Below are positions 917 to 40,402 of a stretch of 40,860 bases of DNA, in pieces. Positions within the stretch are counted from its first letter, which is position 1. The number at the start of each line of letters is the position of its first letter. This stretch comes from Chlamydiota bacterium. Its GTDB lineage: Bacteria > Auribacterota > Tritonobacteria > UBA1439. The notes beneath the pieces were generated by a model. That model saw only the letters and a program-made list of their open reading frames with translations, searched no databases and had not been told where the DNA came from. A program made the position numbers and the translations under genes. Location of the stretch: assembly GCA_037133055.1 (NCBI GenBank), contig JBAXOY010000013.1, positions 1-40,860 of the forward strand, read 5' to 3'.

Positions 917-953
917 GGGCCCGTAGCTCAACGGTAGAGCAGCGGACTCATAA
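917..953 (+). repeat. attL: 37-bp 5' fragment of tRNA(CAT), a direct repeat of 15341-15377
   Basis: GGGCCCGTAGCTCAACGGTAGAGCAGCGGACTCATAA is identical at both sites, and identity ends exactly at the end of the anticodon loop. Confidence 0.95.
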
Positions 954-1074
954 ACCTGTCAAGTTACTTTCCTTAACATTCACCAATCCAAGTAATTAGC
1001 AACAGCCGCAATGGGTTGCGCCAAGAATTTATGTATGGGTTTGTCTAGCGTCGTCGGCATTCGTAGCAGGTGGG

Positions 1075-1092
1075 TAGACACTATTTGGACAC
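1075..1092 (+). repeat. Putative integrase arm-type tandem site, left
   Basis: TAGACAC-tatt-TGGACAC (11-bp period). Identical at 14844-14861 and similar to TGGACAC-aaat-TGGACAT at 15268-15285. Confidence 0.6.
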
Positions 1093-1093
1093 T

Positions 1094-1189
1094 GTCGGGA
1101 GGAAGTGCTACGTCAACGGCGACGACCTCCAGCACTTCATCGAGAGCGATCCCACCCCGGCGGAGCAGAGGGCAACGCGGACCGCGTAG
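1094..1189 (+). pseudogene. Excisionase-like (HTH_17/Xis) remnant A, 3' half
   Basis: Translates as VGRKCYVNGDDLQHFIESDPTPAEQRATRTA*, homologous to remnant B. No start codon or N-terminal half. Confidence 0.7.
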
Positions 1190-1199
1190 TCTTGAAAAG

Positions 1200-1265
1200 A
1201 ACCAGCAAAAAACTGGACAAACCAGCAAAAAACTGTTTGACAGAAAACCGAAAAGGGAGTATAAA
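1200..1265 (+). promoter_or_regulatory. Sigma70 promoter with a tandem 16-bp direct repeat abutting the -35 box
   Basis: AACCAGCAAAAAACTG at 1200-1215 and 1220-1235, then TTGACA (1237-1242), 17 nt, TATAAA (1260-1265). Confidence 0.7.
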
Positions 1266-1533
1266 CGACCAAGGTCAGACTGCACCTGTAGTATAATTTC
1301 ATGGCCTTTGGTCTCATTGTCTAAAAAACAGCGCGGCGGGCTTCGCGGGCAACTACGTCTTCGCGACCACCTTCATCTACAAGTGGGATGGATTCGTCCG
1401 CACCGACCTTCCGGTAGAGAACTCAAATCTCTTCACGATTCAGTGAGTAGCCCTCTGCACACCACGGCGGTGTGCAGTGATAGGTCATTTGCAAGCATTC
1501 CTTTCGAGAGGCGATTAAAAATTATTTGTAGGC

Positions 1534-2910
1534 ATGGTGATAATGAATAGCATTTACCATAATCTCATAGAGCCGAATGAATTTCTTGTCCATGTCCTAA
1601 ACAGCATGGACGAGAGTGTAGTCATAACCGATTTGAACCGTTGCATTGTTTACATTAACCCATTTGCCGAGAAATTGCTTGGGCACTCAGCGGGTGAGAT
1701 ATTAGGGAAAAAAGCCTCGGAATTCTTTGAGGGTATTCCTGGGAATCCACCCAAGCTCGCGGACAAGGTGAGAAATGGATCCGGGCTGGAGGGATGGGAA
1801 GGTGAGGTTTTTGACAGGAGCAAGAATGGAAGGATATTCCCTGTTTATCTTAGAATGGTAGTTGTAAAAGATGAAAGCAGCAATGCAATCGGATATGTAG
1901 GTGTTTCCCGAGAAATTACAGACGAGAAGGAATTTTACAAGACATTAATTTACGGTCATCTACCCAGAAGGATTGTGTATCGATGTCGGCGGATGCGAAG
2001 TTTGTTTGACTCCATTGGCATAGTAGCTAAAAGCAGGGATACGACAGTTCTTATACAGGGTGAGACCGGGACCGGTAAGCAGCTAATCGCATGGGCGGTT
2101 CATAATCTCAGCGAAAGAAAGCACCATAACTTTGTGGACATAGATTGCCCTGCTCTTCCGCGGGATATTTTTGAGAGCGAGCTTTTTGGACATGAGCAAG
2201 GTGCCTTCACCGGGGCTGTAAGAACTAAGAAAGGCCTGTTTGAGCTGGCAAAGGGGGGAACGATCTTTCTCGATGAAATAGCCGAGATGGATTATTCTCT
2301 CCAGGGGAAGTTGTTAAAAGTTATTGAAGATCGAAAATTCAGGCGTATTGGAGGAGAGAGGGATACCAGCACAGATGTGAGGATTATTACAGCTTCCTGC
2401 AAGGATCTTAAACAACTTGTTAAAGACGGGGCATTTAAGAAAGAGCTGTTTTACAGGCTTAACGTATATGTACTGAGCGTACCCCCATTGAGGGAAAGAG
2501 AAGAAGATATCGAACCACTGGTAGAGTACTTCATTGAGCTATTTAACAAAGAGCATGCTAAGAAAATAAAGGGAGTTACACAGGAGACCCTTGCACTCTT
2601 GCAGGAATACAATTGGCCGGGGAACGTGAGGGAACTGAGAAATGTCATTGAGAGGGCATGTCTCCTGACTTCCGGTGAAGAAATGTCTCCCGATTGCCTG
2701 CCTCAGGAGTTGAGTAAGGATACACGCATAATGGAGGAGGAGCTTCTCACAGAAAGAGGTCTCTCCTATGACGATTGGGGCAAGAGAATCATAGAGCAGG
2801 CATTAGCTAAAACCAGTGGCAATGTATCTCATGCCGCAAGACTTCTGGGTAAAGATCGCAATTTCGTCATATACCGCATGAAGAAGTTCATGATAAAACT
2901 TCCCCTTTAG
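1534..2910 (+). CDS. PAS-domain sigma54-dependent transcriptional activator (PAS-AAA+-Fis HTH)
   Basis: N-terminal PAS; GETGTGKQ Walker A; ELFGHEQGAFTGA; FLDEI; WPGNVRELRN; C-terminal GNVSHAARLLG helix-turn-helix. No receiver domain. Confidence 0.93.
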   Translation: MVIMNSIYHNLIEPNEFLVHVLNSMDESVVITDLNRCIVYINPFAEKLLGHSAGEILGKKASEFFEGIPGNPPKLADKVRNGSGLEGWEGEVFDRSKNGRIFPVYLRMVVVKDESSNAIGYVGVSREITDEKEFYKTLIYGHLPRRIVYRCRRMRSLFDSIGIVAKSRDTTVLIQGETGTGKQLIAWAVHNLSERKHHNFVDIDCPALPRDIFESELFGHEQGAFTGAVRTKKGLFELAKGGTIFLDEIAEMDYSLQGKLLKVIEDRKFRRIGGERDTSTDVRIITASCKDLKQLVKDGAFKKELFYRLNVYVLSVPPLREREEDIEPLVEYFIELFNKEHAKKIKGVTQETLALLQEYNWPGNVRELRNVIERACLLTSGEEMSPDCLPQELSKDTRIMEEELLTERGLSYDDWGKRIIEQALAKTSGNVSHAARLLGKDRNFVIYRMKKFMIKLPL

Positions 2911-2935
2911 TTACTCACCTATTTTCCCGACCCAC

Positions 2936-2971
2936 TGTTGAATATTCATCACCCCTGATTAATATTCAATA
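2936..2971. promoter_or_regulatory. Tandem near-palindromic enhancer (UAS)-like sites
   Basis: TGTTGAATATTCATCA (2936-2951) and TGATTAATATTCAATA (2956-2971), 20-bp period, 120-155 bp upstream of the -24/-12 promoter. Confidence 0.6.
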
Positions 2972-3090
2972 CTTCTGCTCCCTAGTGATCGCTCAAAGTC
3001 CAACCTATTTACATACAAGCATTGATGTATCCTTTTCCTGTCCAAAGCATAATGGTGTCATATAAGTCATATTGCTCACTGTGCGTACTG

Positions 3091-3106
3091 TGGCATGATT
3101 CCTGCT
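3091..3106 (+). promoter_or_regulatory. Sigma54 (-24/-12) promoter
   Basis: TGGCAT-gattc-CTGCT gives exact GG-N10-GC spacing, upstream of the RBS (GGAGG) and ATG at 3236. Confidence 0.7.
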
Positions 3107-3235
3107 TCTCATTGACTTGGCACAGATAAGAAGCACGCTAAAAAAAGGAAGTATCGATGATGAATAGCAGGATAGATAACAAGCAGGGAGGATCGATGCA
3201 ATGCGCCAAACCCTGAAAAGGGAAAAGGAGGGGTT

Positions 3236-5524
3236 ATGAACACTTCGATGAGATTGGTCATGCTGTGTGCCGCATTCGTTGTCGCGGGCGTAAACGTCTT
3301 TTCCTCAACCGATGAGCAAGTTCAACTTTCATTGAGCGTTGATAGGCAGGTATATCAGCCGGGCGAGCAATTGATACTAAGCGCGAACATTGCTCCTCCT
3401 GCAGGCGAACTCATCGCCGATGGCTATATTGCGGTGGAATATCCGGATGGAAGACTTCAACTCATCAATGGCGGGGAAGAGGACATAGATATTTCCAGGG
3501 CTTTCGCAAGGGGATTCAGCGTCAAGGAAATGAGCGGCCCCATTCTCTCCGCAACACTCAATGATCTGGATGCAGGTGGCTACGCCATCTATTCCGTGCT
3601 GGTTAAGAAAGAAAGCGACCCGTTTGATCCGAATAACCGGATCAGCAATCTAGCCATGGCGGAGTTTGAAATTGCAGATGGAGCAGAGACAGTGAACAAT
3701 ATGGTGATGGAGAATGAAGAAGCCGGCTCCATCTCCGCTGCACCTGCTTTGACCATTAGGGACAATGAAATCATAATCCCCAACCTGATTACTGTTGATA
3801 GGAGATGGCGCTATCCCACGTCTCACGGCGGATGCCGCAATGAGTGGACTAATCCGCAGAATGCATTGAAAGTGGATGAGAAGGTTGCAATGGAAGGTCA
3901 TGCTTTGCAGGAATATGATACGGACTGGAAACTTCCCAACGGGTACGGCCTTTGTCCTCAATTTAGTCAATGGGAAAACCCCGAGAGAGCTTACACCCCT
4001 GTGCCCTCTTGTGATGGAGAATATGCCTCTGGAACCTCGGGGGAGTTTCAAGGGTGGAACAACTTCGATTTTGGTATCCCCGGAGATGCTTGTTCTACCA
4101 CTATCACGGGCATTAAAGTGTATGCAAGGATGGAAAGGTCCAACCTATGCGACTATCCATCTGTAAACCTTCTTTTGTCATGGTTGTCTAATTGCGGTGA
4201 TAGAACAAATGAGTATTTCTTAGGTATCCCAGCAGAAGATTGGGTAGTGTATGAGACAGAATGGTCGCTTTTTGACCGCACTTGGAGTCCGACTGATTTT
4301 CGCAATGAGAATTTTACCTGCGCGTTACTGGCACATTGCGGCCCCAGTTCCGGAAGCATTAGAGTGGATTGCATAGCAGTGCGTGTCAAATATCAATATA
4401 CTGGCCCCACTTGTACCCCCACGCCGACCCCTACGCCAACTCCCACATCGGTGAACATCTTCAGTGATTGTAATCCTTCTTTCGAAGTCCCTGACAAAGA
4501 CTGGGATCGTCTTGCGGGTTGGGAAGAACTCGGAGCTTACACAAAGATCGATCGATCAAGTGCTTGGGTCGCCAATGGATCATACTCTTGTCGTATGGAG
4601 GATCCCACTTCTAGGTATAGCATTTATCCCGGTGGAGGGGAGTCTTGGGGGAGAGGAATCAGGTCCTGCAAAGTAGGTGTTCAGGCAGGTGATAATTATT
4701 ATGTTGAGGGTAAATTTCTTGTCAAGAAGGAAAAAGAAGGCAGCATTCCAGGGGATACCCGTTATCGATTCTGGGTAGAGTGGTGGTATGACGAAAATAA
4801 TCTGAGATCTACAGAAATGAGATCATGGAACTTCAGTCGCTTTGATGCCTGGATAACAATGTACTACGACAGTATAAAGGCTCCAGAAAGTGCTACGTTA
4901 ATGAGTGTGTATGTTGATTGCAAAGAAAACCAGGACGGAGGCAAGAATAACAATAATGATGTTTATTTCGATACTTTGTTTGCGAAGTTTATAACTCCAA
5001 CCCCAATCCCACCTCCCACGCGCACGCCTACACGGACGCCGACCGTCACCCCCACACGCACGCCGACAAGGACATCGACGCCGACGGTGACGCCGACACC
5101 CACGAGAACGCCGACACGGACGCCTACTCCAACCCCAAACACAGACTCCTGGTATCTGACATATGGTCCGAGTGGTAGCGGTGATGTCGTGCAGATAGGA
5201 TCCATGTACGTGGCAAGTAAGAAGGATGGTCTTGGCTGTGCGGGGAATGGTACAAAGACGTGGCTGGCCGCCATAGAATGGGCCAATGGTTTGAGTTGGC
5301 TGGGTAAGGATGACTGGAGAATGCCCGCCGGGGGCGCGGGAGGAGAGCTGTCAACGATATGTAATGACAAGGATCATTTAGGTTCATATCAGTTGGGCAA
5401 CTATTGGTCCTCTACTGAGTACGGTGCCGATCGCGCGTCCTACGTGGATTTCTCCAACTGTTCCCTCCACGGCGACTATAAGACGCGCAGTAGTTACGTC
5501 CGCGCAGTCCGGGCCAGCGAGTAA
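3236..5524 (+). CDS. Large secreted multidomain protein with a C-terminal DUF1566/Lcl (C-type-lectin fold) domain; putative DGR target
   Basis: Signal peptide; N-terminal module resembling the shared surface domain; Cys-containing beta domain; Pro/Thr linker; CBM-like NPSFE...W domain; second Pro/Thr linker; then WxxAxxWxxx[19 protein letters not shown]...YVRAVR (DUF1566 motifs). Confidence 0.85.
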
Positions 5525-5545
5525 CCGTCGTTTTGATATTTTGAC

Positions 5546-5578
5546 GCGTGCTACCCCGCAGGAAGCGGGGTAGCACGC
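5546..5578. other. Perfect 14-bp hairpin/cruciform without a U-tract (DGR target-recognition-like)
   Basis: GCGTGCTACCCCGC-AGGAA-GCGGGGTAGCACGC starts 21 nt after the stop at 5524, preceded by TTTTGA-ta-TTTTGA. No T-tract follows the stem on either strand. Confidence 0.65.
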
Positions 5579-5649
5579 TGGAAATGTTTCACTCAGTATG
5601 CCCCGCCGAATCGTACGCCTTATCCGCGCTCAACTCTTCTGCCCGATCC

Positions 5650-6108
5650 AGCAACCCCACGCGGACACCCACGAGAACTCCGGTCCCGCCGACCGCAACA
5701 CCGGTGCCTACTGAGCCGACGGCTACGCCGGGATGGCCGACGCCCCCAGCGCCGCCGGAGGGACATGTCGAGCTGAACGGGTCGTCGTTCAACTCGAAGA
5801 ACACAGTGGTGGGGACATTCGTATTGGACATCGCGATTGATACGCCGTTTACCGTCTATGCGGTGCTAATAGGTCCCGACGGCGTAATGGTGAATGCAAG
5901 CGACCTGAAGACCTCTTTGATGCCGCTTGTGGTGAACTACCCCGGTCTCGCGATGCCGTTCTCGTACCCGTTCCTGTCTGCGAAGATACCGACGAAATGG
6001 CCGAAGGGGCAGTACGAGGCGGTGGTAGCGTTCTTCGACCCGAGCAAGCCGATTACAGAACGGCAGGATGCTTTTCTGAACGTGAGCACAAAGTTCACGA
6101 TCCAATAG
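5650..6108 (+). pseudogene. Orphan Pro/Thr linker plus C-terminal surface domain (gene fragment)
   Basis: [15 protein letters not shown]...HVELNGSSF...YAVLIGPDG...GQYEAVVAFFDP...KFTIQ*. No signal peptide, and the track's start at 5548 lies inside the hairpin. Confidence 0.65.
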
Positions 6109-6271
6109 TCACATCCAGAATTGCCGGTCGAGGACGCGGTACTGGATCAGGCATGGCAAGCTGAAGGCGCATCGGGTGGGGCGGAAGTACTACGTCAAGT
6201 CCGATGACCTCCAGAGTTTCATAGAGAACGGCCCCACCCCGGCGGAGCAGAGGGCAACGCGGACCGCATAG
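6109..6271 (+). pseudogene. Excisionase-like (HTH_17/Xis) remnant B, the longest copy
   Basis: Translates as RYWIRHGKLKAHRVGRKYYVKSDDLQSFIENGPTPAEQRATRTA*, matching the Xis pattern rWIrxGkLkAxrvGrxy.v...dl..fl. The 5' part is degenerate with no start. Confidence 0.75.
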
Positions 6272-6366
6272 TCTTGAAAAGAAGCAGTATGACAAATTGA
6301 GTTATGAGTGTTAGCATGGCCCGGGAGCAAGATATTGGCTATGGTTCTAACGGGGGGGAGGGCCTG

Positions 6367-8034
6367 ATGAAAAGGGGATTGTGTCTTGGTGTAGCGATGT
6401 CTTGCTTTATGTTCGTCCTTCCGCTCTATGCCCAACTCGCCGACAGTCCGTGGCCGATGTTCCGTACGAATGCGCAGCACACAGGCTGGAGCGCTTACAC
6501 AGGTTCCCAGACGGGAACTCTCCTGTGGAGCTATCAGACCGGAAGCCCGGTGACTTCTTCCCCCGCCATCGGCTCTGACGGGGGAGTCAGGGTAGGATCT
6601 CGGGACTGCAGAATCTACAGGCTAAATCCTACCGGTTCTCTCCTGTGGAGCTATCAAACGAGCAACTATGTGGAGGCTTCCCCCGCCATCGGCTCTGACG
6701 GGAGGGTCTGCGTAGGGTCTTTTGACAACAACATCTACTGTCTAAATTCTGCCGGTTCTCTCCTGTGGAGCTATCTAACCGGATGTTCGGATTATTCTTC
6801 CGCCGTCATAGGCTGTAATGGAAAGATCTACGTGGGATCTCGGGACAACAGCGTCTACTGTCTCAATCCTACCGGTTCTCTCCTGTGGAGCTATCTAACT
6901 GGATATTTGGTGATGGGGTCTTCCCCCGCCATCGGCTCTGGCGAGGGCGTCTGCGTGGGGTCTCGGGACAACAGCATCTACTGTCTCAATCCTACCGGCT
7001 CTCTCGGGTGGAGCTATCTAACCGGAGGTTATGTGGATTCCTCCCCCGCCATCAGCGGCTATGACGGGAGGGTCTGCGTGGGGTCTTTTGACAACAACAT
7101 CTACTGTCTCAATCCTACCGGTTCTCTCCTGTGGAGCTATCTAACCGGAGATTATGTGGGTTCCTCCCCCGCCATCGGCTCTGACGGGAGGGTCCACGTG
7201 GGGTCGCTGGATAACAGCATCTTCTGTCTCAATTCTACTGGTTCGCTCCTGTGGAGCTATCTAACCGGATATGCTGTTTCTTCTTCCCCCGCCATTGGCT
7301 CTGACGGGGGAGTCTGCGTGGGGTCTTATGACAGGAGAATCTACGGGCTTAATCCTACCGGTTCTCTCCTGTGGAGCTTTCAAACGAGCAACTATGCTGA
7401 CAGCTATGTGCATTCTTCCCCTGCCATCGGCTCTGGCGGGATGGTCTACGTGGGATCTAATGACAACAGGTTTTATGCTTTTTATGATCCGCCGCCGCAG
7501 ACTCCCACTGCAACGCCGACTATCACTCCGACACCGACCATTACCCGGACTCCTACTGCGACGCCAACGACTACAAGAACCCCGACTAGAACACCTACCC
7601 GTACCCCAACAAAAACGCCTACCCGCACTCCGACAAGGACGCCGACGAGGACACCTACGCCTCCCCTAGACCTGACGCCCAACAAGAAGTCCTTTGCCAC
7701 GACGGATTTCATATCGGTGACCGCTAATGTGTGGCCGCTCACGGTGCCGTGCTACCCGTTCGTGCGCATCGTCATGCCGGACGGCTCGACGCTCTGGTAC
7801 GAGTCGAGCAAAGGGTTCATGGCCTCGCCGGTGCCTTACCTTGGCTTCGCGGCGGGACCGATTACCACCTCCACGCCTATCCTCGGTTATCCTGCACTCA
7901 CGGCGAACTTCTCGGGGATCGCGGCGGGGACCTACGTTATCGAGGGCGGAGCGGTGGATGCCACTAAGACGACCTCGGCGTCGAATCTCGTCTACTTCGG
8001 GACGGTGGATCAGGATGCGCTGACGGTGCATTGA
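6367..8034 (+). CDS. Secreted PQQ-like (BamB-type repeat) beta-propeller protein with Pro/Thr linker and shared C-terminal domain
   Basis: RBS then MKRGLCLG... signal peptide; DSPWPMFR; eight ~40-aa repeats (GSLLWSYxTG..V.SSPAIGSDG.V.VGS.D..IY.LN); PTRT linker; C-terminal domain. Confidence 0.88.
   Translation: MKRGLCLGVAMSCFMFVLPLYAQLADSPWPMFRTNAQHTGWSAYTGSQTGTLLWSYQTGSPVTSSPAIGSDGGVRVGSRDCRIYRLNPTGSLLWSYQTSNYVEASPAIGSDGRVCVGSFDNNIYCLNSAGSLLWSYLTGCSDYSSAVIGCNGKIYVGSRDNSVYCLNPTGSLLWSYLTGYLVMGSSPAIGSGEGVCVGSRDNSIYCLNPTGSLGWSYLTGGYVDSSPAISGYDGRVCVGSFDNNIYCLNPTGSLLWSYLTGDYVGSSPAIGSDGRVHVGSLDNSIFCLNSTGSLLWSYLTGYAVSSSPAIGSDGGVCVGSYDRRIYGLNPTGSLLWSFQTSNYADSYVHSSPAIGSGGMVYVGSNDNRFYAFYDPPPQTPTATPTITPTPTITRTPTATPTTTRTPTRTPTRTPTKTPTRTPTRTPTRTPTPPLDLTPNKKSFATTDFISVTANVWPLTVPCYPFVRIVMPDGSTLWYESSKGFMASPVPYLGFAAGPITTSTPILGYPALTANFSGIAAGTYVIEGGAVDATKTTSASNLVYFGTVDQDALTVH
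6511..7480 (+). repeat. Eight intragenic ~120-bp tandem repeats encoding propeller blades
   Basis: CTCCTGTGGAGCT-like cores recur about every 120-123 nt with high DNA identity. Confidence 0.9.
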
Positions 8035-8075
8035 GCCGGCATCCTGAAAGCGGGGGAATGGAAGGAGGCGCGCAT

Positions 8076-9536
8076 ATGAGGAGGCATCTAGAAGGTGCCA
8101 CAGTGAGCAGACGGCTGCTCTGCACGGCCCTGGCGCTATGCCCTCCCCTCGGCTATGCCGTCCTGCCGCCCGCAGCACCGGCGGAAGAGGTAGTGTATGT
8201 GGTGAACGGCTACTGCCACGACACCCCGCAGCCGGAGTGGAGCACCGTCATGATGCTGAGGGGGAGCGACCTTGAGATCCTCCGGACGCTTGAACTCCCG
8301 GCAAAAGACGCGCATTCGATCGCGGCTACTCCCGACGGGTCGCAACTCTGGGTGACGTGCTCCAACGGCTACCGCACCTTCGTGGTTGACGCGGAGAGTT
8401 TCGAGGTGGTCCACGAGTACGACTACGCGCCGGCGGGGATCAGGCCGATGGGGGTCGCCGTGGAGCCCGACGGCCTAGAGGCGTTCATCGGGCTCCGCGA
8501 TTCCTTCACGTGCATGAGATACGACACGGCGACCTACGAGCTGCTGACGCCCGACACAAGCACGGGGATAGAGCCGGCGTTCATGCTGTTCACCCCGGAC
8601 GGCACCCGTGTGTGCGTCTCGGATATGTACACGACGGTGAGGGTGTTCAGGACCGCAGACCTGGTCCCGCAGAGAACCTACACCTTCGATACGGCCGCCA
8701 TGGGCCTCGGCGAAGCGGCCGTCAGCCCGGACGGCAACGTGCTCTACGTGTGCAATATGGGCAGGAACCGGATCGAAAGGGTTATGCTGACCTTGCCGTG
8801 GATGCCCCTGCCGCCGCTCTCCACCATGCCGTATATTAAGCCGCGTGGCATCGCCATCTCCCCCGACGGGAACTACCTGTTCATCGGGCACTATATGGGC
8901 ACGGACTCCAAGGTGACGATGTGGTCACTCGCGTCCTGGACGCTTTGCGCGATGGCGGACATCCCGATCAATGGGCGGCGCGTCGTCGCGAACGACGACT
9001 GCAACCGCATCTATGTGACCGAGCACACCGACGATAAGTGCTGCGCCTACCGGGTGGACACGGCGGGGGAAAGCATGTTCATAGACGCGATCGCGGACCT
9101 GAACGCCATCCCGGGACACAAGGCCTCTCCGATCGGTATCGTTGTGGGAGATTGGGAGCCCCCCCCGATCGACCTCACGGCCGACAAAACGACGTTCGCA
9201 ACCACCGACCGCATCTCGGTCACGGCTGACGTCCTCGCCATCCCGACGCCCTGCTACCCGTTCGTTAGGATCCTGTTGGCGGACGGCTCCACCCTCTACT
9301 ACGAGTCTGGCAGGGGGTTCACGAATTCCCCCACCCCCTACCTCGGGTTCGCGGCGGGGACGGTCATGACAACGGCACTCATCCCGAACTATCCCGCGCT
9401 TACGGCGGACTTCTCGGGGATCATACCCGGAACTTACGTCCTCGAAGGCGGAGCAGTGGATGCAACGAAGACAACCTCGGCATCCAATCTTATCTACTTC
9501 GGCAGAGTGGACCGGGAGACGCTGACGGTGCGGTAA
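8076..9536 (+). CDS. Secreted YncE/YVTN-like beta-propeller protein with shared C-terminal domain
   Basis: GGAGG RBS; hydrophobic leader; repeats IAATPDGSQLWV, VAVEPDG, FTPDGTRV, VSPDGNVLYV, IAISPDGNYLFI; C-terminus homologous to those ending at 268 and 8034. Confidence 0.85.
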   Translation: MRRHLEGATVSRRLLCTALALCPPLGYAVLPPAAPAEEVVYVVNGYCHDTPQPEWSTVMMLRGSDLEILRTLELPAKDAHSIAATPDGSQLWVTCSNGYRTFVVDAESFEVVHEYDYAPAGIRPMGVAVEPDGLEAFIGLRDSFTCMRYDTATYELLTPDTSTGIEPAFMLFTPDGTRVCVSDMYTTVRVFRTADLVPQRTYTFDTAAMGLGEAAVSPDGNVLYVCNMGRNRIERVMLTLPWMPLPPLSTMPYIKPRGIAISPDGNYLFIGHYMGTDSKVTMWSLASWTLCAMADIPINGRRVVANDDCNRIYVTEHTDDKCCAYRVDTAGESMFIDAIADLNAIPGHKASPIGIVVGDWEPPPIDLTADKTTFATTDRISVTADVLAIPTPCYPFVRILLADGSTLYYESGRGFTNSPTPYLGFAAGTVMTTALIPNYPALTADFSGIIPGTYVLEGGAVDATKTTSASNLIYFGRVDRETLTVR

Positions 9537-9620
9537 TCCGGGCAACTGGGGTTGAGCTTGCCCGCGACCACCCCGTAAGAGGCGTTTCCGGTGGCTGCTT
9601 GCCCGTTTACGATCCGCTGT

Positions 9621-9660
9621 TCACATCCACATCTGCCGGTCGAGAACGCGGTACTGGATC
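9621..9660 (+). repeat. Xis-like remnant C, a copy of 6109-6148
   Basis: 36 of 40 nt match 6109-6148 by manual alignment. Confidence 0.8.
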
Positions 9661-9841
9661 GGAGTAATCCTATCACACCTGCGGCCCCTCCAGCCATTGT
9701 CTTAGGAATCCTGTCCATAAGTCCACCCTTGCAAATTCCACAGAGAAGGATGATGATAGGCATTGCGATTGGCTGGGGATAATGTGATCGGTGACATGGA
9801 GAATCAACCTCACCCCCTGAATAATAACCCCCCTCGGGGGA

Positions 9842-9870
9842 TTGACAGGAGACGCAAATCTGGATAGCCT
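9842..9870 (+). promoter_or_regulatory. Candidate sigma70 promoter for the lipoprotein operon
   Basis: TTGACA-17 nt-TAGCCT, about 115 nt upstream of the ATG at 9985. Confidence 0.45.
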
Positions 9871-9984
9871 CGAACAAGAATATGTATCTATAAATCGGCG
9901 AATAGTGCAATTTTGTCTCCATTCTCATTGATCTATGGAGGTAGAATCGGTCGCTGAAAATAATCCCGTAGTGAAAGGACGCAC

Positions 9985-10617
9985 ATGAAACCCCGCCATT
10001 ATTTGTCACGAATATTCATCAGGACCGTTCTGCTCGCCACCGCGGCATCCTGTGTGCTCATGGCCGGATGCGCGACGAACACCTGGGTAGCCACCCAGAT
10101 CGAAGAGGGACAGAAGAAACACCGCTCGGACCTTAGCGCCATGACGCAGAAGGTCCAGCAATCCCTGGCGCAGGAGACGGCAAAGAATCAGAAGCGCACG
10201 AAGATACTTGATGACCTGGCTGGAGATATTCAGCGGCTCGAGAAGGAGCTGAACACACTCAAGGCGAACATCGACACGCTGCGCGCGGAAATAAGCGCGC
10301 GCCTCCAGACGCAGGACAAGGAGATGACAGAGACGTTTCAGAAGGCCGATGGGAAAGTGCACAGCGAACTTCTGGCGAAGCACCAGGAAGCGGTCGACTC
10401 CATCCGGCAGGAGATGCAGAAGGTTGAAGGCGCGAATCGGCACGCTGATCAGCTCGCCACGACGCTCCAGGAGATGGCGTCGGTTTACCGCAGCATCGCC
10501 CAGGATACGGCGGACGAATACAAGGCGCTCGAATCCTCGGTCAATGAGATCTCCGCTCAGAAAACGGTTCCACACGCTTCTCCACCCGCCGCGGGTTCAC
10601 CCCCAAAGGCCCCGTAA
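9985..10617 (+). CDS. Coiled-coil lipoprotein, function unknown
   Basis: AAGGA RBS; lipobox-like LMAGC; a long heptad-rich helical region. Confidence 0.75.
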   Translation: MKPRHYLSRIFIRTVLLATAASCVLMAGCATNTWVATQIEEGQKKHRSDLSAMTQKVQQSLAQETAKNQKRTKILDDLAGDIQRLEKELNTLKANIDTLRAEISARLQTQDKEMTETFQKADGKVHSELLAKHQEAVDSIRQEMQKVEGANRHADQLATTLQEMASVYRSIAQDTADEYKALESSVNEISAQKTVPHASPPAAGSPPKAP

Positions 10618-10623
10618 CGATAT

Positions 10624-11826
10624 ATGATTAGCAGGAAGATGGATACAGGCTCCCCACCCCAGTGCGATATCCTTGAGCATCGCACAAGGGTGTTCGCGCA
10701 CGCCTGGCCGGCGTTTATCGCGACGGCGCTCTTGTGCGGATGCGCCACGCCCGCCGCAGTGACCCCACTGGTTGAAAAGAAACTTGCCGAGCCGAGCGAG
10801 GGATCAATGCGCGACTTCACGAGGGAAAACGTGGCGTGGGAAAAATCCGTCAGGGATCTCGATGCGCGCTACTCCGCTCTTCAGAAAAATATCGAGTCCT
10901 CCTCCCCCCGCTTTCGCCGGATTGCGCAGGAGACGGAGACATTACAGACACAGGTGCGCGCTCTCACTAATGATTTCAAATCGCGCCTTGAGTCGACCGG
11001 CCGGAAGGTGCGGCAGCGCATGACCGCCGCCGACGTGAAAAACGCGGATGAGACCCTCCATGGAATGCGGGATCAGGAAAAGGAGTTCCCCTCTCACCGA
11101 CGCCGTTGTTCGGAGACCTGCTACAAAATCGGACGGCTCCACGGCAAGCAGCAGCATTCCATCACGATATTTGCCGCTCGCAGCACGAAGGTATGCACGA
11201 AACTCGGCGCCGAAAAAGCCGTCGCGTCCTCCGCATCGGCCGTCGCGCTTCCCCCCATCAACCGCCGCCGGATCGCCTTCGACATTCCGCCGAATGTCGA
11301 TTCCTGGATGGCGCTCGCCCAGGTGCTCATCGACAAGGGGTCGATGAAACCGCTTCACCCCTCCGTCGAGGCGCTCATCGCCCTCGATCCGCAGACGTTG
11401 AAAAGCCATGAGGAGCGCCGCCAATCGCCGGGGGACGTATTTCTCACCCGGGCATTGAGGAATTACCTGGAATCGCTGACATCCCTGAAGGCCGCATGCG
11501 GGACTTTGCAGGAGGGATGGCAGCCGGTGTGGGATTCAGAGAAGGCGCTGCTGAAGCATTCGGGGGAACGCCCAGCCCCGCTCCGATGGATGAGGGAGGA
11601 CAGCTTCCGGGAAGGGATGATCAACAAGGCGTATGTGTATGACGCGCTGATACGGTCGCGGGGAGGCACAACCGACGCCTATGACCGATTCGAGATGTCG
11701 TACTACCTCGGAGAGATGATCTGGGCAGCCAAGAAACTAGGGCACCCGTACGGCGATGAGATAGAACGGCTGGCGAACGACTACCTGTCGCGCCTCTCTG
11801 CTCGCGCACCTCTCGCCGTACACTAA
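10624..11826 (+). CDS. Hypothetical lipoprotein with an N-terminal coiled coil (true start may be downstream)
   Basis: ATALLCGC lipobox-like motif; tightly packed in the operon. Confidence 0.6.
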   Translation: MISRKMDTGSPPQCDILEHRTRVFAHAWPAFIATALLCGCATPAAVTPLVEKKLAEPSEGSMRDFTRENVAWEKSVRDLDARYSALQKNIESSSPRFRRIAQETETLQTQVRALTNDFKSRLESTGRKVRQRMTAADVKNADETLHGMRDQEKEFPSHRRRCSETCYKIGRLHGKQQHSITIFAARSTKVCTKLGAEKAVASSASAVALPPINRRRIAFDIPPNVDSWMALAQVLIDKGSMKPLHPSVEALIALDPQTLKSHEERRQSPGDVFLTRALRNYLESLTSLKAACGTLQEGWQPVWDSEKALLKHSGERPAPLRWMREDSFREGMINKAYVYDALIRSRGGTTDAYDRFEMSYYLGEMIWAAKKLGHPYGDEIERLANDYLSRLSARAPLAVH

Positions 11827-11847
11827 ACGACGAACGGATCTTCGGAG

Positions 11848-12489
11848 ATGATACCTATGCCTACACGTTCGATAACACGCCTATTATTCGCAGCTGCCCT
11901 GTGCGCCCTGTGCGCAGGGCCCGGGTGCGGTGGGACAAAATACAAGAAGGGAATACCGGTCCGGGATGTGGACCCGCGGATGCCAGGCACCCCGATGGCG
12001 GGGACGGGGCCCGAGTCTCAGGATCTCCTTGCCATCGCCGACAGGATGACCCAATCCCTCCTCCGGGCCCCTGTTGTCGCCCATGCGAAAGAGCCGCCGA
12101 CCGTCGTGCTCCTCAGTTTCCGCAATCGCTCGCGCTTCCCCATCAACGCGGATATATTCCTGAAGAAACTCAGGGTCCAGCTCAACAGCGCCGCGGCGGG
12201 CCGCATTATATTCCTCGGCAGAGAGCGGATGGACGATGTGCTGAGTGAACGGAGGGCCAAGCGGAGCGGGCTGGCGTCGGCGTCCCCCGAGAAAAGGCAC
12301 AATCTTCCTGCGGGCGCCGACTATTTTCTCTCGGGGAGCATAGACGGCCTCGCCAAAAACTCGGCGTACGGCCGGGAGGATTATCTGCTCTACATCTATC
12401 AGTTGATAGACGCGGAATCCTCGGCGGTGGTCTGGGAAGACCAGTTCGAGATCAAGCGCGTCGGCCTCGATGACGCGGTGTATCGATAG
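11848..12489 (+). CDS. LpoB-like (penicillin-binding-protein activator/CsgG-like fold) lipoprotein
   Basis: Lipobox-like AGPGC; D...IADRMTQSLL; FRNRS; GADYFLSGSI; YQLIDAESSAVVWED are typical LpoB-family motifs. Confidence 0.75.
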   Translation: MIPMPTRSITRLLFAAALCALCAGPGCGGTKYKKGIPVRDVDPRMPGTPMAGTGPESQDLLAIADRMTQSLLRAPVVAHAKEPPTVVLLSFRNRSRFPINADIFLKKLRVQLNSAAAGRIIFLGRERMDDVLSERRAKRSGLASASPEKRHNLPAGADYFLSGSIDGLAKNSAYGREDYLLYIYQLIDAESSAVVWEDQFEIKRVGLDDAVYR

Positions 12490-12521
12490 GAACGAGCGCT
12501 GCGGCAAGGAGATGCCCTAAT

Positions 12522-13376
12522 ATGAGTGCCTATCCATCGAGGAAGATCCATATTCTGATGGCGGTCGCCGCCGCGTGCGCTACCTCATGTAGCCGCGAAC
12601 ACCCTTCCCCCATGGCGGTTCAAGCGGTTCCGCTTCCGGCCGCGGGGCCGACGGGTATCACCTTAGAGCAGGCAAGGCTCGGCTCGCGTGCACCTGAGGC
12701 ACGCTCATCGGCAGGCGTAGCCGATGCACAATGGTATAAGGCCGCGGGAGAGCCCCGGATACTAATTCTTGTCAACCGGAGGTTTGCGACGGACTCCGAA
12801 CTCTGGAGAGCGGATCAGAGGGTCGTCATGGAGACCTCAAAGGGCTCGTCGCTACGCATCATTAACGATTACGAGCAGCACGATACGGAGCGCGAAAGAA
12901 CGGAACGGCGAACGGAGAAACGGGCGGATTCCGCCGGGGACTTTCTTCCGGCGGAGATGGCCGCGGGCCTCAGGGAAGGGTTGATCACTCCCTTCCTCAT
13001 GGCGGGGTGCCGTGTGATCGACCCGGATGCGGTCGAGCGGATTGCGCAGGCTACCGCCTCACGGGAGCAGGGAGCGTCGAGCGGACGCTCCCAGGCAGAT
13101 GTCTCCGCCGATGCGGTCCGGAAGGAATCCGACTGGATCATGGAGGCGGCGGTATTCCCCGCTTCCACAGAGGGCATGCCCTATATCATTGCGGCCAAGG
13201 TCGTGGACCTCAAAACCGGCCGCGTCATGGCGTATGCCACGACGCGGGAACTCGGCCTCGCATCGCGTCTCCCCGGCACGGAGAGATCGGCAGGCGCAAA
13301 GATGCCGCCCGAGGAGCAGGGCCGGTGGCTTGCGCGGGAAATATCGCTGAAGCTCGCCGCAGCGATGTCCAGATAA
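12522..13376 (+). CDS. Hypothetical lipoprotein, possibly CsgG/TolB-N-like fold
   Basis: AACATSC lipobox-like motif; PRILILVNR; GCRVIDP; AKVVDLKTGRVMA. Confidence 0.65.
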   Translation: MSAYPSRKIHILMAVAAACATSCSREHPSPMAVQAVPLPAAGPTGITLEQARLGSRAPEARSSAGVADAQWYKAAGEPRILILVNRRFATDSELWRADQRVVMETSKGSSLRIINDYEQHDTERERTERRTEKRADSAGDFLPAEMAAGLREGLITPFLMAGCRVIDPDAVERIAQATASREQGASSGRSQADVSADAVRKESDWIMEAAVFPASTEGMPYIIAAKVVDLKTGRVMAYATTRELGLASRLPGTERSAGAKMPPEEQGRWLAREISLKLAAAMSR

Positions 13377-13396
13377 CGCACGTGCGGGTGTAAAAG

Positions 13397-14785
13397 ATGA
13401 AAACGGGCACGTATTTCATCCGACTTATGCCGGTCGTGAGTATGGTCGCCGTGTTCAGTTCATGCAAGACGCCCCCGCGACCCGCTCCGGTCCTCGTTCC
13501 GATTTCCCAAGCTGCGGGCGTCCCCTCCGACATCCGCTACTGCCTCATGCGCTTGGAGACGGAGGGGGACCGCAACGCCGTTCTCAACCTCTCGGAAACA
13601 GCCTTCAAGAGCATCGAGGCATGGGATACCGTCCCGAACGATCTCCGCCCCATTCTCGTGGACCGCGCGCTCAACGAGGCGATCAAGAGAATCGAGACCG
13701 TGTACGCGAATACCCCCGAGGCGCGCAAGGCGCGCTCTGTATGGCATGACGAGGACTCGAAAGATTTCAAGGGAGAACCGTACGAGCGCTGCCTCGTCTA
13801 CCTTCTTCGCGGATTGAGATACTACCAAGAGGGAGAATTTGAAAATGCCCGGGCCTGCTTCACGAGCGGGATGCTCCAGGATAACCTTTCCGTGGAGGGG
13901 GAATATAACGCTGACATGGGGACGTTCGAATACCTGATCTCGCTGTGCGACACGCGATTGGGGGAACGCGAGGCTGCGGATGAGGCCTGGCAACGTGCGG
14001 TCAAAATATGGGAGCAGACCGGACCACCCATCCGGATATCCCGACCGAAACACATATCTCTCGCGATACCGGAAATTGGGGAGCAAGGGCGGGACACCAC
14101 CCTCCGGGACGTGCGAAAACCGCAGGAGTGCGACAATCTCCTGGTCGTCGCGTTTGTTGGAGAGGGGCCAAGAAAATCCGCCACCGGCAGCGACAACGAG
14201 CTCTTATTGATCGAGCGGGGGGCGGCGCAGACGACACGGGTTGAAATATCCGCACCGTGGTTCGGGAAATTCCCCGACTACGAGACCGCCGCACAGACCG
14301 ATGACATCGGGTATCAGGCGACCACACGCGGCGGACGCCTCGTGGACGAGATCAACAAAAAGAAAGCGGTTACGAAACACGCCACAGAGAATACCGGTTA
14401 TTTCAGCAAAGGCATGGGCAAGGCAGCCATGACCATCGGCCTACAGTTGGCAATGATGGGAGCCCAGTTTGCCCCCATGGGCAGCGGGGCTGCAGCCCAG
14501 ATGATCATCGGGGGCGGATCCACGGCCGCCGCAGGTGTCGGCGCGCAGGTGCTTGGACAAGGGCTCACGTTCGCCAGCAAGAAGATGAAAACAAAGGCGG
14601 ATACGAGAATGATCGGCTCCCTTCCGGGTTTCATACATCTCTGGTCGGGCAGGGTTGTCCCCGGCAGACAGCTCGTCGCCGTGAAGCTTTATGATGAGGT
14701 CGGCCGTTGCATAGGGGAATCCTATCAGGACGTGGCCGTACCATATGGTCGAGGTAACGCCCTCGCTTTCATGCGCTGCCCCTAA
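13397..14785 (+). CDS. COG3014-like TPR lipoprotein
   Basis: VFSSC lipobox-like motif; DFKGEPYE followed by TPR-like helices (GLRYYQEGEFENARACF); C-terminal KADTR...LP motif; near an LpoB-like gene, as is usual for this family. Confidence 0.7.
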   Translation: MKTGTYFIRLMPVVSMVAVFSSCKTPPRPAPVLVPISQAAGVPSDIRYCLMRLETEGDRNAVLNLSETAFKSIEAWDTVPNDLRPILVDRALNEAIKRIETVYANTPEARKARSVWHDEDSKDFKGEPYERCLVYLLRGLRYYQEGEFENARACFTSGMLQDNLSVEGEYNADMGTFEYLISLCDTRLGEREAADEAWQRAVKIWEQTGPPIRISRPKHISLAIPEIGEQGRDTTLRDVRKPQECDNLLVVAFVGEGPRKSATGSDNELLLIERGAAQTTRVEISAPWFGKFPDYETAAQTDDIGYQATTRGGRLVDEINKKKAVTKHATENTGYFSKGMGKAAMTIGLQLAMMGAQFAPMGSGAAAQMIIGGGSTAAAGVGAQVLGQGLTFASKKMKTKADTRMIGSLPGFIHLWSGRVVPGRQLVAVKLYDEVGRCIGESYQDVAVPYGRGNALAFMRCP

Positions 14786-14830
14786 AGCGGACATATCGCA
14801 AAGCTTGTTTTTACCTGACCGGTGACACTC

Positions 14831-14904
14831 CGTAGCAGGTGACTAGACACTATTTGGACACTGTCGGGCGGACATACTACGTCAAATCCGCTGACCTCCA
14901 GCAC
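14831..14904 (+). repeat. Second copy of the island left-end junction (arm sites plus xis remnant D)
   Basis: Colinear with 1062-1135 (CGTAGCAGGTG..TAGACACTATTTGGACACTGTCGGG...CTACGTCAA...GACCTCCAGCAC); encodes VGRTYYVKSADLQH. Confidence 0.85.
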
Positions 14905-14905
14905 A

Positions 14906-15319
14906 ACAGTTACCAGGACAAAAAGCGGGAAGGACAGGAAGATTCCCATCAACTCGGAAGTGCACGATGTATTGAAGCGTCGGCCGAAAGATGGCATATT
15001 TGTATTCCACCAGGAGGGCAGCCCCTACGGTGATGTGAAGACAGGATTCTTAAATGCTGTGCGGAGATCGGGGATAGGGTACTGCCGGTTTCACGACTTG
15101 AGGCACACTTTCGCCACACGGCTGGTGCTCGCCAATGTGAGCCTGCCGGTGGTGAAGGAGCTCCTGGGGCATGCGTCCATAGAGACGACGATGAGATACG
15201 CGCACCCGACACCGGAGAGCAAGATCAGGGCGGTGGAGATGCTCAAGTGGGTGGAGACTGATTCCTTTGGACACAAATTGGACATCAGCGCATTTCGCGC
15301 AATTCGAGGTAATTCCTAA
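14906..15319 (+). pseudogene. Tyrosine recombinase/integrase, C-terminal fragment
   Basis: TKSGKDRKIPI (catalytic Lys loop), FHDLRHTFA, LLGHASIETTMRYAH (HxxR, H and Y present). The N-terminal domains and first catalytic Arg are missing; the fragment joins directly to xis remnant D. Confidence 0.9.
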
Positions 15320-15340
15320 TTACTTGCAGATGAAGTAGTT

Positions 15341-15415
<75 letters not shown>

Positions 15416-38070: not shown

Positions 38071-39129
38071 ATGAAAATCATGCTGAAGGAGATCGCCTCC
38101 CTGATCGGCGGGGAGGTCGAGGGGGACCCGGGGGCCGTCATCACCGGCGTCTCCGGGATCAAGGAGGCGGGGGAGGGCGATCTCACCTTCCTCGCGAACC
38201 CGAAGTACGCGCCCCTGCTCGAGACGACGCGGGCGGCGGCGGCGGTGGTGGAGAAGGGGCTGAAGACCCCCTCGGCATGCCCGCTGATCAGGGTCGACAA
38301 CCCGTCGCTCGCCTTCTCGAAGCTCATCGAGCTGTACGGCCCGAAGAAGCTGGAGTTCCCGAAGGGGGTCGACAAGAGGGCGCAGGTCGGCGCAAAGGCG
38401 AAGCTCGGCAAGGGCGTCTCGGTCGGCCCCTTCAGCGTGGTCGAGGACGGGGCCGTCATCGGCGACCGCACCGTCATCCGGAGCGGGGTCTACATCGGCC
38501 ACGGCACCGCGCTCGGCGCGGACTGCCACATCTATCCGAACGTCACGATACGGGAGCGCTGCGTCATCGGGAACCGCGTGAACATCCACAGCGGCAGTGT
38601 GATCGGGAGCGACGGCTTCGGCTACGTCGCGGTCAAGGGGGTCCACAAGAAGATACCCCAGATAGGCACGGTCGTCATCGAGGACGATGTCGAGATCGGC
38701 TCGAACGTGACGATCGACCGCGCCCGCTTCGACAAGACGATCATCAGGAAGGGGACGAAGATAGACAACCTCGTCCAGATCGCCCACAACTGCGACATCG
38801 GCGAGAACTCGATCATCGTGGCCCAGGTGGGCATCTCGGGGAGCACCTCGATCGGGAAGAACGTGATCCTGGCGGGCCAGGTCGGGGTGGTCGGGCATGT
38901 CACCATCGGGGACAACACGATCATCGGGGCAAAGGGGGGCGTTTCGAAGAACGTGCCCCCGAACGCCTACTACATCGGCATCCCCGCCATGGAGGGGAAG
39001 GAGTTCAAAAAGGTGCACGCCGCCCTCCTCCGCCTCCCCGGCCTCATCACGAAGGTGCGGGAACTCGAGGCGAAGATCGAGGCGCGCGAAAAGGTCGGCA
39101 CGGACGATGCAAAACCAGCGAACGATTAA
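38071..39129 (+). CDS. lpxD: UDP-3-O-acylglucosamine N-acyltransferase
   Basis: [39 protein letters not shown]. Confidence 0.97.
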
Positions 39130-40402
39130 GACCCAGGTCTGCCTCACGGGCGTCGGGGTCCACACGGGCAACAAGACCCGTCTGGTCTTCACCCCCGCAC
39201 CCCCCGACACCGGGGTGAAGTTCGTGCGCACGGATCTCCCCGGCTCGCCGGAGGTGCCCGCGCTCGCCCGCAACGTCTCGGACGTGCGCCGGGGCACGAC
39301 GATCGCGCGCGACGGCGCCGAGGTGCACACGGTGGAGCACGTCCTCGCCGCGATCCGCGGGTGCGGGCTGGACAACGTGGTCGTCGAGCTTGACGCCAAC
39401 GAGCCTCCCGTCGGGGACGGGAGCGCCTTCGCGTACGTGCGGATGATCAGGTCGGCGGGCCTCGAGGAGCAGGACGCCCCGCGGCGGGAACTCGTGCTGC
39501 AGGAGCCGGTCTGGGTGGCGAAGGATAACGCCGCCATCGCGGTCATCCCCGCCCCCCAGTTCAGGATCTCCTACACGATGGACTTCAAGCATCCGACCCT
39601 CCCCGCGCAGTTCGTCAGCTTCCTGCTGACCGAGGAGACGTTCGAGCGCGAGATCGCGCCGGGGCGCACCTTCTGCTTCTATCACGAGATCGAGTCTCTG
39701 GTTTCCCAGGGGCTGATCAAGGGCGGCAGCCTTGAGAACGCAGTGGTGATCGGGGACGGGGTGATCTACAGCAAGGAGCGGCTGCGATTCCCCGACGAGT
39801 TCGCCCGGCACAAGATCCTGGACATCATCGGCGACCTGTGCCTGGTGGGAAAACATCTGCGGGCCCATGTGATCGCCATGCGGTCCGGCCACGAACTGAA
39901 TGTCGAGGTCGCCCGCAAGCTTGCCGCGATCGCCGAGCGAAGCGCGGTGCGCACCCGAGAGCGTACATCGGAGGGAACCGTCATGGATATACACGAGATC
40001 AGGCGCATTCTTCCCCACCGCTTCCCATTCCTGCTGGTCGACCGGATCGTGGAGGTGAAGGGGAAGGAGAAGATTGTCGGGATAAAAAACGTCACGGCCA
40101 ACGAGCCGTTCTTCACCGGGCATTTCCCTGACAATCCCGTGATGCCCGGGGTCCTCATCGTCGAGGCCCTGGCGCAGACCGCCGGGGTGCTGATGCTCAA
40201 CACCCCCGAAAACCTCGGCAAGCTCGCGTTTTTCATGGGGATCGAAAACGCGAAGTTCCGAAAGCCCGTGATCCCCGGGGACCAGTTGCGCCTCGAGGTG
40301 GAGGTCATCCGCTGGAAGACCAAGACCGGCAAGGTGCGGGGAGTCGCCTATGTGGACGGCAAGGTCGCGGCCGAGGCGGACCTGACGTTCACCTTCATCT
40401 GA
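39107..40402 (+). CDS. lpxC-fabZ: Bifunctional LpxC deacetylase/FabZ dehydratase fusion
   Basis: [40 protein letters not shown], then [11 protein letters not shown] and [20 protein letters not shown] in one frame. Confidence 0.96.

Follow-up and report, generated by a model that had tools for sequence, protein, structure and literature searches.

A lectin-fold surface-protein tip in an Auribacterota genome, probably written by a diversity-generating retroelement that is absent from the assembly

A surface-protein gene with a lectin-fold end on a probable island

We analysed a window of 40,860 nucleotides from an Auribacterota genome (G000; assembly 92% complete, 191 contigs) that contains a gene for a predicted surface protein (Table 1). 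The product has an N-terminal family domain, two passenger domains, Thr-Pro linkers, and a C-terminal Lcl/DUF1566 domain of the C-type-lectin fold, the kind of domain found at the end of CLec2-class targets of diversity-generating retroelements (DGRs). The Pfam Lcl_C/DUF1566 profile matches aa 670-759 with a score above its cut-off (E 6e-10), bearing out an earlier note that had recognized this domain from the DNA letters. A model of the domain (pLDDT 87) has the C-terminal domain of Legionella pneumophila Lcl as its top structural match (PDB 8Q4E; E 2.8e-6, TM 0.69, 25% identity), followed by C-type lectins. The likeness to Lcl is one of fold, and the collagen-like region of the Legionella protein is absent here. 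By analogy of the modeled fold with Lcl and LdtA, the protein most likely binds a ligand at the cell surface through a lectin-fold tip that is fixed. Domains that are N-terminal here (3296-3685) and in the proteins of G000:C52, L006, and L046 are C-terminal in most surface proteins of G000; all of these proteins end in Lcl, with a domain order as if the other domains had been moved and the lectin tip left C-terminal.

The gene lies between a partial 40-nt copy of tRNA-Met (917-956) and a full tRNA-Met (15341-15415), with an integrase fragment at 14960-15319, which suggests an island and supports the island location claimed earlier. Among the 150 matches listed in the DNA of five relatives, none is to 3236-4990. 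Three related repeats of 74-112 nt (1062-1205, 6176-6287, and 14831-14904), possibly remnants of integrase ends, suggest successive islet insertions at tRNA-Met. The island also holds a five-gene lipoprotein cluster (9985-14785) with coiled-coil, LpoB/CsgG-like, and TPR members, and further along the window a single reading frame (38897-40402) appears to join LpxC-like and FabZ-like parts.

Table 1 Features of the locus and of a related cassette elsewhere in the genome
Feature	Position	Strand	Basis or remark
Probable island	917..15415	+	tRNA-Met copies, integrase fragment, repeats; putative
Surface-protein gene	3236..5524	+	762 aa; predicted secreted/surface, from hydrophobic N-terminus
Lcl_C (PF07603) domain	5150..5521	+	Profile match and structure model
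5' constant block of CLec2 variable region (YWSSTE)	5402..5419	+	Collinear with templates in L115, L128, L132
Variable region (VR), probably DGR-written	5420..5497	+	26 codons, 22 NNY; codon pattern, template alignment, L046 comparison
GC-rich IMH-like 3' constant block (VRAVR...)	5498..5521	+	79% GC; putative IMH role, from position (PMC5758913)
Short T-rich direct repeat TTTTGA-TA-TTTTGA	5531..5544	+	Sequence
Perfect 14-bp inverted repeat, 5-nt loop, no U-tract	5546..5578	.	Candidate DGR stem-loop/cruciform
Start-less 3' remnant of surface-protein gene	5620..6108	+	Thr-Pro linker, and domain found at the C-terminal end in ~10 other G000 genes
Decapitated DGR cassette (L151)	G000:C62:2229-3380		FGE-sulfatase-type target with VR, T-rich repeats, Avd, 14-codon RT start

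Codon pattern and downstream features of the variable region

Codon counting confirms that GCG, GTG, AAG, and ACG are the only VR codons that do not end in C or T, and the resulting NNY share is the highest of any 26-codon stretch in the gene. Against a background of 0.55 NNY the excess has a binomial P of ~0.0015 for a stretch picked post hoc, and with the amino acids held fixed P is only 0.06-0.08; taken alone, the excess is modest. In 36 DUF1566 tails of other taxa, two templates and one true VR among them, the mean NNY share is 0.70 versus 0.54 upstream, and three of the 36 reach 0.84. NNY bias by itself is generic in DUF1566 tails, including those with no reverse transcriptase (RT) nearby, so this control takes away part of the weight that the earlier note had put on the bias and leaves the observation that the focal gene tops the range. 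Among 41 distinct segments from the family (20 further rows, partly duplicates, were dropped for want of an anchoring motif), the focal one ranks first both in NNY share and in the length of its perfect stem (14 bp; next 10), which suggests that it is a recent addition to a widespread set of DGR-derived tips, most of which have decayed.

By comparison with 11 family VRs and three real templates, several NNY codons belong to the scaffold rather than to the variable positions, namely Ala at VR codon 3, Phe at 11, Cys at 14, Tyr at 26, and a Trp/Tyr column at 7. The AAC/AAT template that the earlier note had predicted is wrong at these codons.

The GC-rich 3' end, the T-rich repeat, and the perfect hairpin are all present as originally described. 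The IMH-like block and the inverted repeat occupy the places expected in a CLec2 target, with putative roles; a downstream inverted repeat occurs in only 34% of DGRs, according to the parts of PMC5758913 that we consulted. The inverted repeat has a fold z of -3.1, and the G000 genome holds 35 perfect hairpins of ≥14 bp in 2.99 Mb. A terminator scan lists no site at this position on either strand, and a role as terminator is not supported. In complete control DGRs, too, T-rich repeats come after the VRs, and a motif related to the repeat, fitted post hoc, follows 11 of 34 C-terminal family tips against a background of 0.27% of random 70-nt windows; the T-rich repeat was therefore rightly flagged. 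Short T-rich direct repeats with a period of 6-8 nt stand after the VR stop codon in L115, L128, L132, L090, and G000:C62, in both CLec1- and CLec2-class targets. Wu et al. (PMC5758913) do not use the term "direct repeat" in their main text, and these repeats may be an unrecognized cis element. An isolated VR-end fragment (L016/L049; G003:C81:19975-20021) has a stop, a spacer, and a T-rich repeat as in the focal gene (83% over 47 nt) and, behind them, a stretch resembling a hairpin, with no intact Lcl gene.

Third positions point to DGR writing

We compared the region with the templates of three complete CLec2 DGRs from unrelated bacteria (L115, L128, and L132). All three align with it gap-free, codon for codon, over 37 codons. 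Two of them match only the VR in the whole G000 genome (E 1e-7 and 2e-5), and the third has no match in that genome. Adenine enrichment of the differences is weak (p 0.036-0.075) against these distant templates, none of which is cognate.

The strongest evidence for DGR writing is third-position sharing with L046, a homologous tip on a metagenome contig. L046 is the best of 34 comparisons and was retrieved by a pattern that fixes the flanking blocks; the VR of its protein is identical in all three cluster members. At codon positions 1, 2, and 3 the two VRs differ in 16, 10, and 3 of 26 codons, with only 13 of the 29 mismatches involving an A; as a yardstick, two true VRs from similar templates differ in 12, 12, and 4. 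The corresponding counts for the upstream part of the domain are 22, 18, and 26 of 87 (Fisher p 0.007). Where an NNY codon has changed its amino acid to that of another NNY codon, the C/T phase agrees in 14 of 15 cases (permutation p 0.002).

L046 is, moreover, a mosaic: its flanks on both sides group with L006, whereas its VR third positions group with the focal VR. Third-position groupings of focal with L046, L046 with L006, and focal with L006 stand at 14:2:1 in the VR versus 9:11:10 upstream (p 8e-4), and the all-site groupings just downstream of the VR are 0:7:1. A second third-position pattern is common to L006, L032 (twice), and L008, which differ from one another by 5-10, the median over all 55 pairs being 15, in a pairwise test that took only the 11 of 38 anchored segments with exactly 26 codons. 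Like a CLec2 target, the VR thus aligns with CLec2 templates and varies at codon positions 1-2 with its third positions conserved. The DGR-type variable region proposed in the earlier note is borne out as a putative CLec2-class VR with an IMH-like end, a T-rich repeat, and a stem-loop, and its DGR origin is well supported by these alignments.

Search for an RT, a template, and variation

RVT_1 has no match in the G000 genome, tblastn of the assembly with five DGR RTs returned nothing below E 0.25, and an adenine-blind scan of the whole assembly found no template, the best non-self match having 28 non-A mismatches in 111 nt. The lack of an RT and a template near the gene therefore extends to the whole 92%-complete assembly. 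The picture is the same in the family: no DGR RT was found in any of the eight genomes (G000 and seven relatives), two of which have RVT_1 matches, one a group II-type RT (L018) and the other a decayed, frameshifted fragment without DGR motifs (L019), and both were rejected. A DGR RT query matched in one of 21 relatives, that one outside the class. Template-like patterns were found in none of the eight family genomes and none of 79 phylum genomes; a C-terminal-only Lcl match (G003:C21) was rejected as a template, being a truncated target. Among the 42 RVT_1 matches in the 79 phylum genomes, 30 were examined, and three are of DGR type (L089, L090, and L093), all with templates of other classes.

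Wider searches gave little more. A flank-pattern search of the JGI metagenome collection, which would miss a template with other end blocks, returned L046 as its sole match, and the same search of viral contigs had none; 17 viral Lcl loci contained no DGR, and neither an alignment-based viral scan nor blastn against plasmids and phages produced a match. The 401 genomes of the class of G079, the bacterium carrying the L128 DGR, were matched only by G079's own DGR. Avd scores above its cut-off in only one of nine class genomes, in the C62 cassette described below; other bAvd-like matches in relatives, below the DGR-Avd cut-off and with no target or RT motif nearby, were rejected.

We found no variant contig over the covered parts of the VR in any of four runs from three studies, in contigs of ~4-8x from which rare alleles are dropped, so rare variants would be lost at this depth. 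Run X1 covers all of the VR and is possibly the source of the G000 assembly, hence one of the four may be non-independent; X3 covers the VR to 5482, X4 to 5444 in the listed piece, and X2 from 5479. The gaps in X2 (~5223-5478) and X3 (~5483-5620) are not counted as evidence, and the comparison used an identity cut-off of 80%. The differences listed, which leave aside 27 weaker ones, include none over the VR; identical contigs alone account for the depth in the VR bin, and the same allele recurs across runs dated 2018-2020. In the portions of Roux et al. (PMC8144416) consulted, DGR activity is under-detected even at 20-50x and hidden by low coverage. The earlier note had taken the gene for a target diversified in trans at present by an RT and template located elsewhere; this part of its reading is unsupported, since neither element was found in G000 or its family and the low-depth contigs of four runs show no variant, both of which argue against ongoing diversification.

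A decapitated DGR in the same genome

Contig C62 of G000 carries a DGR cassette whose RT body and template are missing (Table 1). It consists of an FGE-type target (2229-2924), an Avd scoring 109.9 bits against the NF033474 cut-off of 80, and an overlapping 14-codon start that resembles the start of the DGR RT in L093. In five of seven relatives the genes flanking the cassette adjoin each other, leaving an empty insertion site, which suggests that a DGR arrived in the line of this species and then lost its RT. On this sequence evidence the relic demonstrates DGR gain and loss within G000. Its class is CLec1/FGE, unlike the CLec2 VR studied here, and its true Avd belongs to a broken cassette whose target is of FGE class; the relic is at most a candidate writer of that VR.

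A probably DGR-written and now frozen tip, and the alternatives

Copying of template RNA by an RT that errs at adenines, with the cDNA replacing the VR, is the established mechanism of DGRs. We propose, with a probability of roughly 0.56, that the VR was DGR-written and is now frozen, probably having been rewritten in place by a DGR since lost. A CLec2-class DGR would have written the last 26 codons of the surface protein: its RT, erring at adenines, would have made cDNA from an AAC/AAT-rich template RNA, and this cDNA would have taken the place of the sequence that lies between the YWSSTE block and the GC-rich IMH, aided by the downstream stem-loop. The same or a near-identical template would also have rewritten a different gene in a related organism, that of L046, and since one template would then have served both genes, writing was probably in place, in trans, and within the lineage. 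The RT and template would since have gone from the assembled genome and the allele become fixed. As the assembly is without enzyme or template and the tip looks fixed, the tip is most likely a left-over of past diversification that is not being rewritten now. It would thus be one invariant ligand-binding tip within a family repertoire, with a presumably adhesin-like function. The intact hairpin and the undecayed third positions, on the other hand, would also fit a target still in use, and the case for a frozen tip is further tempered by the incomplete assembly (92%, 191 contigs) and by read evidence that consists of ~4-8x contigs.

These same points favor an active or conditionally active remote target, with an RT and template that are unassembled or on a mobile element in part of the population and with low-frequency rewriting of the VR. 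The focal gene has the freshest VR and the best hairpin of the 41 family segments, a template of ~75% identity could escape the 80% cut-off of the read comparison, and the G000 assembly is incomplete. Remote CLec2 targets are also real, as reported in the consulted parts of Wu et al. (PMC5758913) and Dore et al. (PMC10907252) and as exemplified by L181, which departs from the template of its genome at 14 of the 35 adenines and at 3 of the 58 remaining bases. We nevertheless consider an active target rather unlikely, given that none of the eight family genomes has a DGR RT, that the only Avd above cut-off among nine class genomes is the decapitated one, that no template-like pattern occurs in 79 phylum genomes, that the flank pattern finds only L046 in JGI metagenomes and nothing in viral contigs, and that the allele is unchanged across the 2018-2020 runs. 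L181 (G079:C1:128500-128620) is a remote target of the L128 DGR on another contig of the same genome, and L128 carries a second VR/TR pair.

The VR might instead have been written in another organism's target and have entered by ordinary recombination, alone or with the whole Lcl tail including repeat and hairpin, at conserved blocks or Thr-Pro repeats, and never have been rewritten in place. Such a capture would be consistent with the probable tRNA island, with the start-less gene remnant after the hairpin, and with the occurrence of the same Lcl subfamily on unrelated N-termini and in mid-protein; recombination would likewise produce a mosaic of VR and flanks. However, one template lineage would have had to be captured twice independently, in the focal gene and in L046, with more captures for the second group, and no matching donor turned up in the 401 genomes of G079's class or in plasmids, phages, and viral contigs, and we regard a capture as unlikely. 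An origin without any DGR, in which ordinary diversifying selection acted on a loop that binds ligand, with NNY codons from Tyr/Asp/Asn/Ser/Gly composition and a chance or terminator hairpin, could appeal to the non-significant third-position pyrimidine excess given the amino acids (P 0.06-0.08), the 0.70 average of DUF1566 tails, and the 35 such hairpins in G000, but it is highly improbable, leaving unexplained the conserved C/T phase at amino-acid-changed codons, the VR/flank mosaic, the DNA-level likeness to real templates, and the T-rich repeats in common with true DGR targets.

Relation to known DGR targets

The tip resembles the CLec2 targets of category "d" (DUF1566/DUF823/Fib_succ_major; Legionella LdtA type) in the consulted parts of Wu et al. 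2018 (PMC5758913): it belongs to a surface protein whose C-terminal VR is flanked by constant blocks and runs collinear with real templates, and it has a GC-rich IMH-like end and a downstream inverted repeat without a U-tract. Unlike them, it is accompanied in the assembled G000 by neither an RT nor a template nor a cognate Avd, and it shows no variation in low-depth contigs. Because RT and template were looked for and not found, we do not file the gene as part of a DGR.

Remote and remnant DGR targets are already published, in the portions of the reports that we consulted. Remote targets of Treponema and others (PMC5758913), Thiohalocapsa PB-PSB1 (PMC10907252), and cyanobacteria (PMC7517822) likewise lie far from the RT and keep their cis features, but their genomes hold the RT and template that were not found in G000. 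The remnant target all3226 of Nostoc PCC 7120 (Vallota-Eastman et al. 2020, PMC7517822) is likewise a remnant VR paralog with no RT nearby, and its authors propose that the diversification parts were removed once a variant had been selected. PCC 7120 keeps two DGRs, whereas in the family of G000 six of eight genomes have Lcl tips (up to 27) and no DGR RT was found in any. RT-anchored surveys miss remote targets (consulted parts of Roux et al., PMC8144416), and DGRs may therefore have shaped far more bacterial surface proteins than have been counted. Third-position phase between homologous tips could serve to detect and group DGR-written genes without a template.

A repertoire of Lcl tips in the family

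Lcl domains occur in six of the eight family genomes, with four in G000, 27 in G003, 15 in G005, and one each in three others; most belong to modular secreted proteins, in which a Thr-Pro linker precedes them. Among named homologs, the closest bear the label Ca. Aureabacteria/Auribacterota, and the data sets in which the sequence occurs are lake and freshwater metagenomes, with no RNA data set among those listed. In the literature consulted there is no report of DGRs or DUF1566 repertoires in Auribacterota, a comparison on which the target tables of DGR surveys may bear; the main text of PMC9324843 does not contain "DUF1566", "diversity-generating", or "lectin".

A tentative extension of the frozen reading is a hit-and-run process, in which the Auribacterota family keeps a chromosomal set of surface proteins with homing-competent CLec2 tips, complete with IMH, T-rich repeat, and hairpin, but without a resident DGR, and visiting mobile DGRs rewrite the tips in trans before being lost or, as in C62, decapitated. 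At least two template lineages would have overwritten different genes in different genomes, so that the repertoire would be a record of successive visits. If this is true, a cell could profit from hypermutation and yet not have to maintain the mutator; otherwise, the focal gene simply joins the orphan targets of a kind already known. Three points set the case apart from the ordinary: a repertoire spread through the family while no RT is resident, evidence that two template lineages run across different genes, and a decapitated cassette within G000 itself.

The genomes richest in Lcl tips show two arrangements. On three contigs of G005 (C97, C99, and C127; L054-L056), tandem arrays comprise 15 similar genes of ~290-320 aa, each ending in Lcl and with differing VRs, some with small indels; G005 has no RT match. 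G003 has many small secreted proteins (for example L008, L019, L050, and L051) with a common N-terminal domain and Thr-Pro linker and differing C-terminal heads, Lcl among them, and many of its Lcl genes have a conserved GC-rich imperfect hairpin after a T-rich motif.
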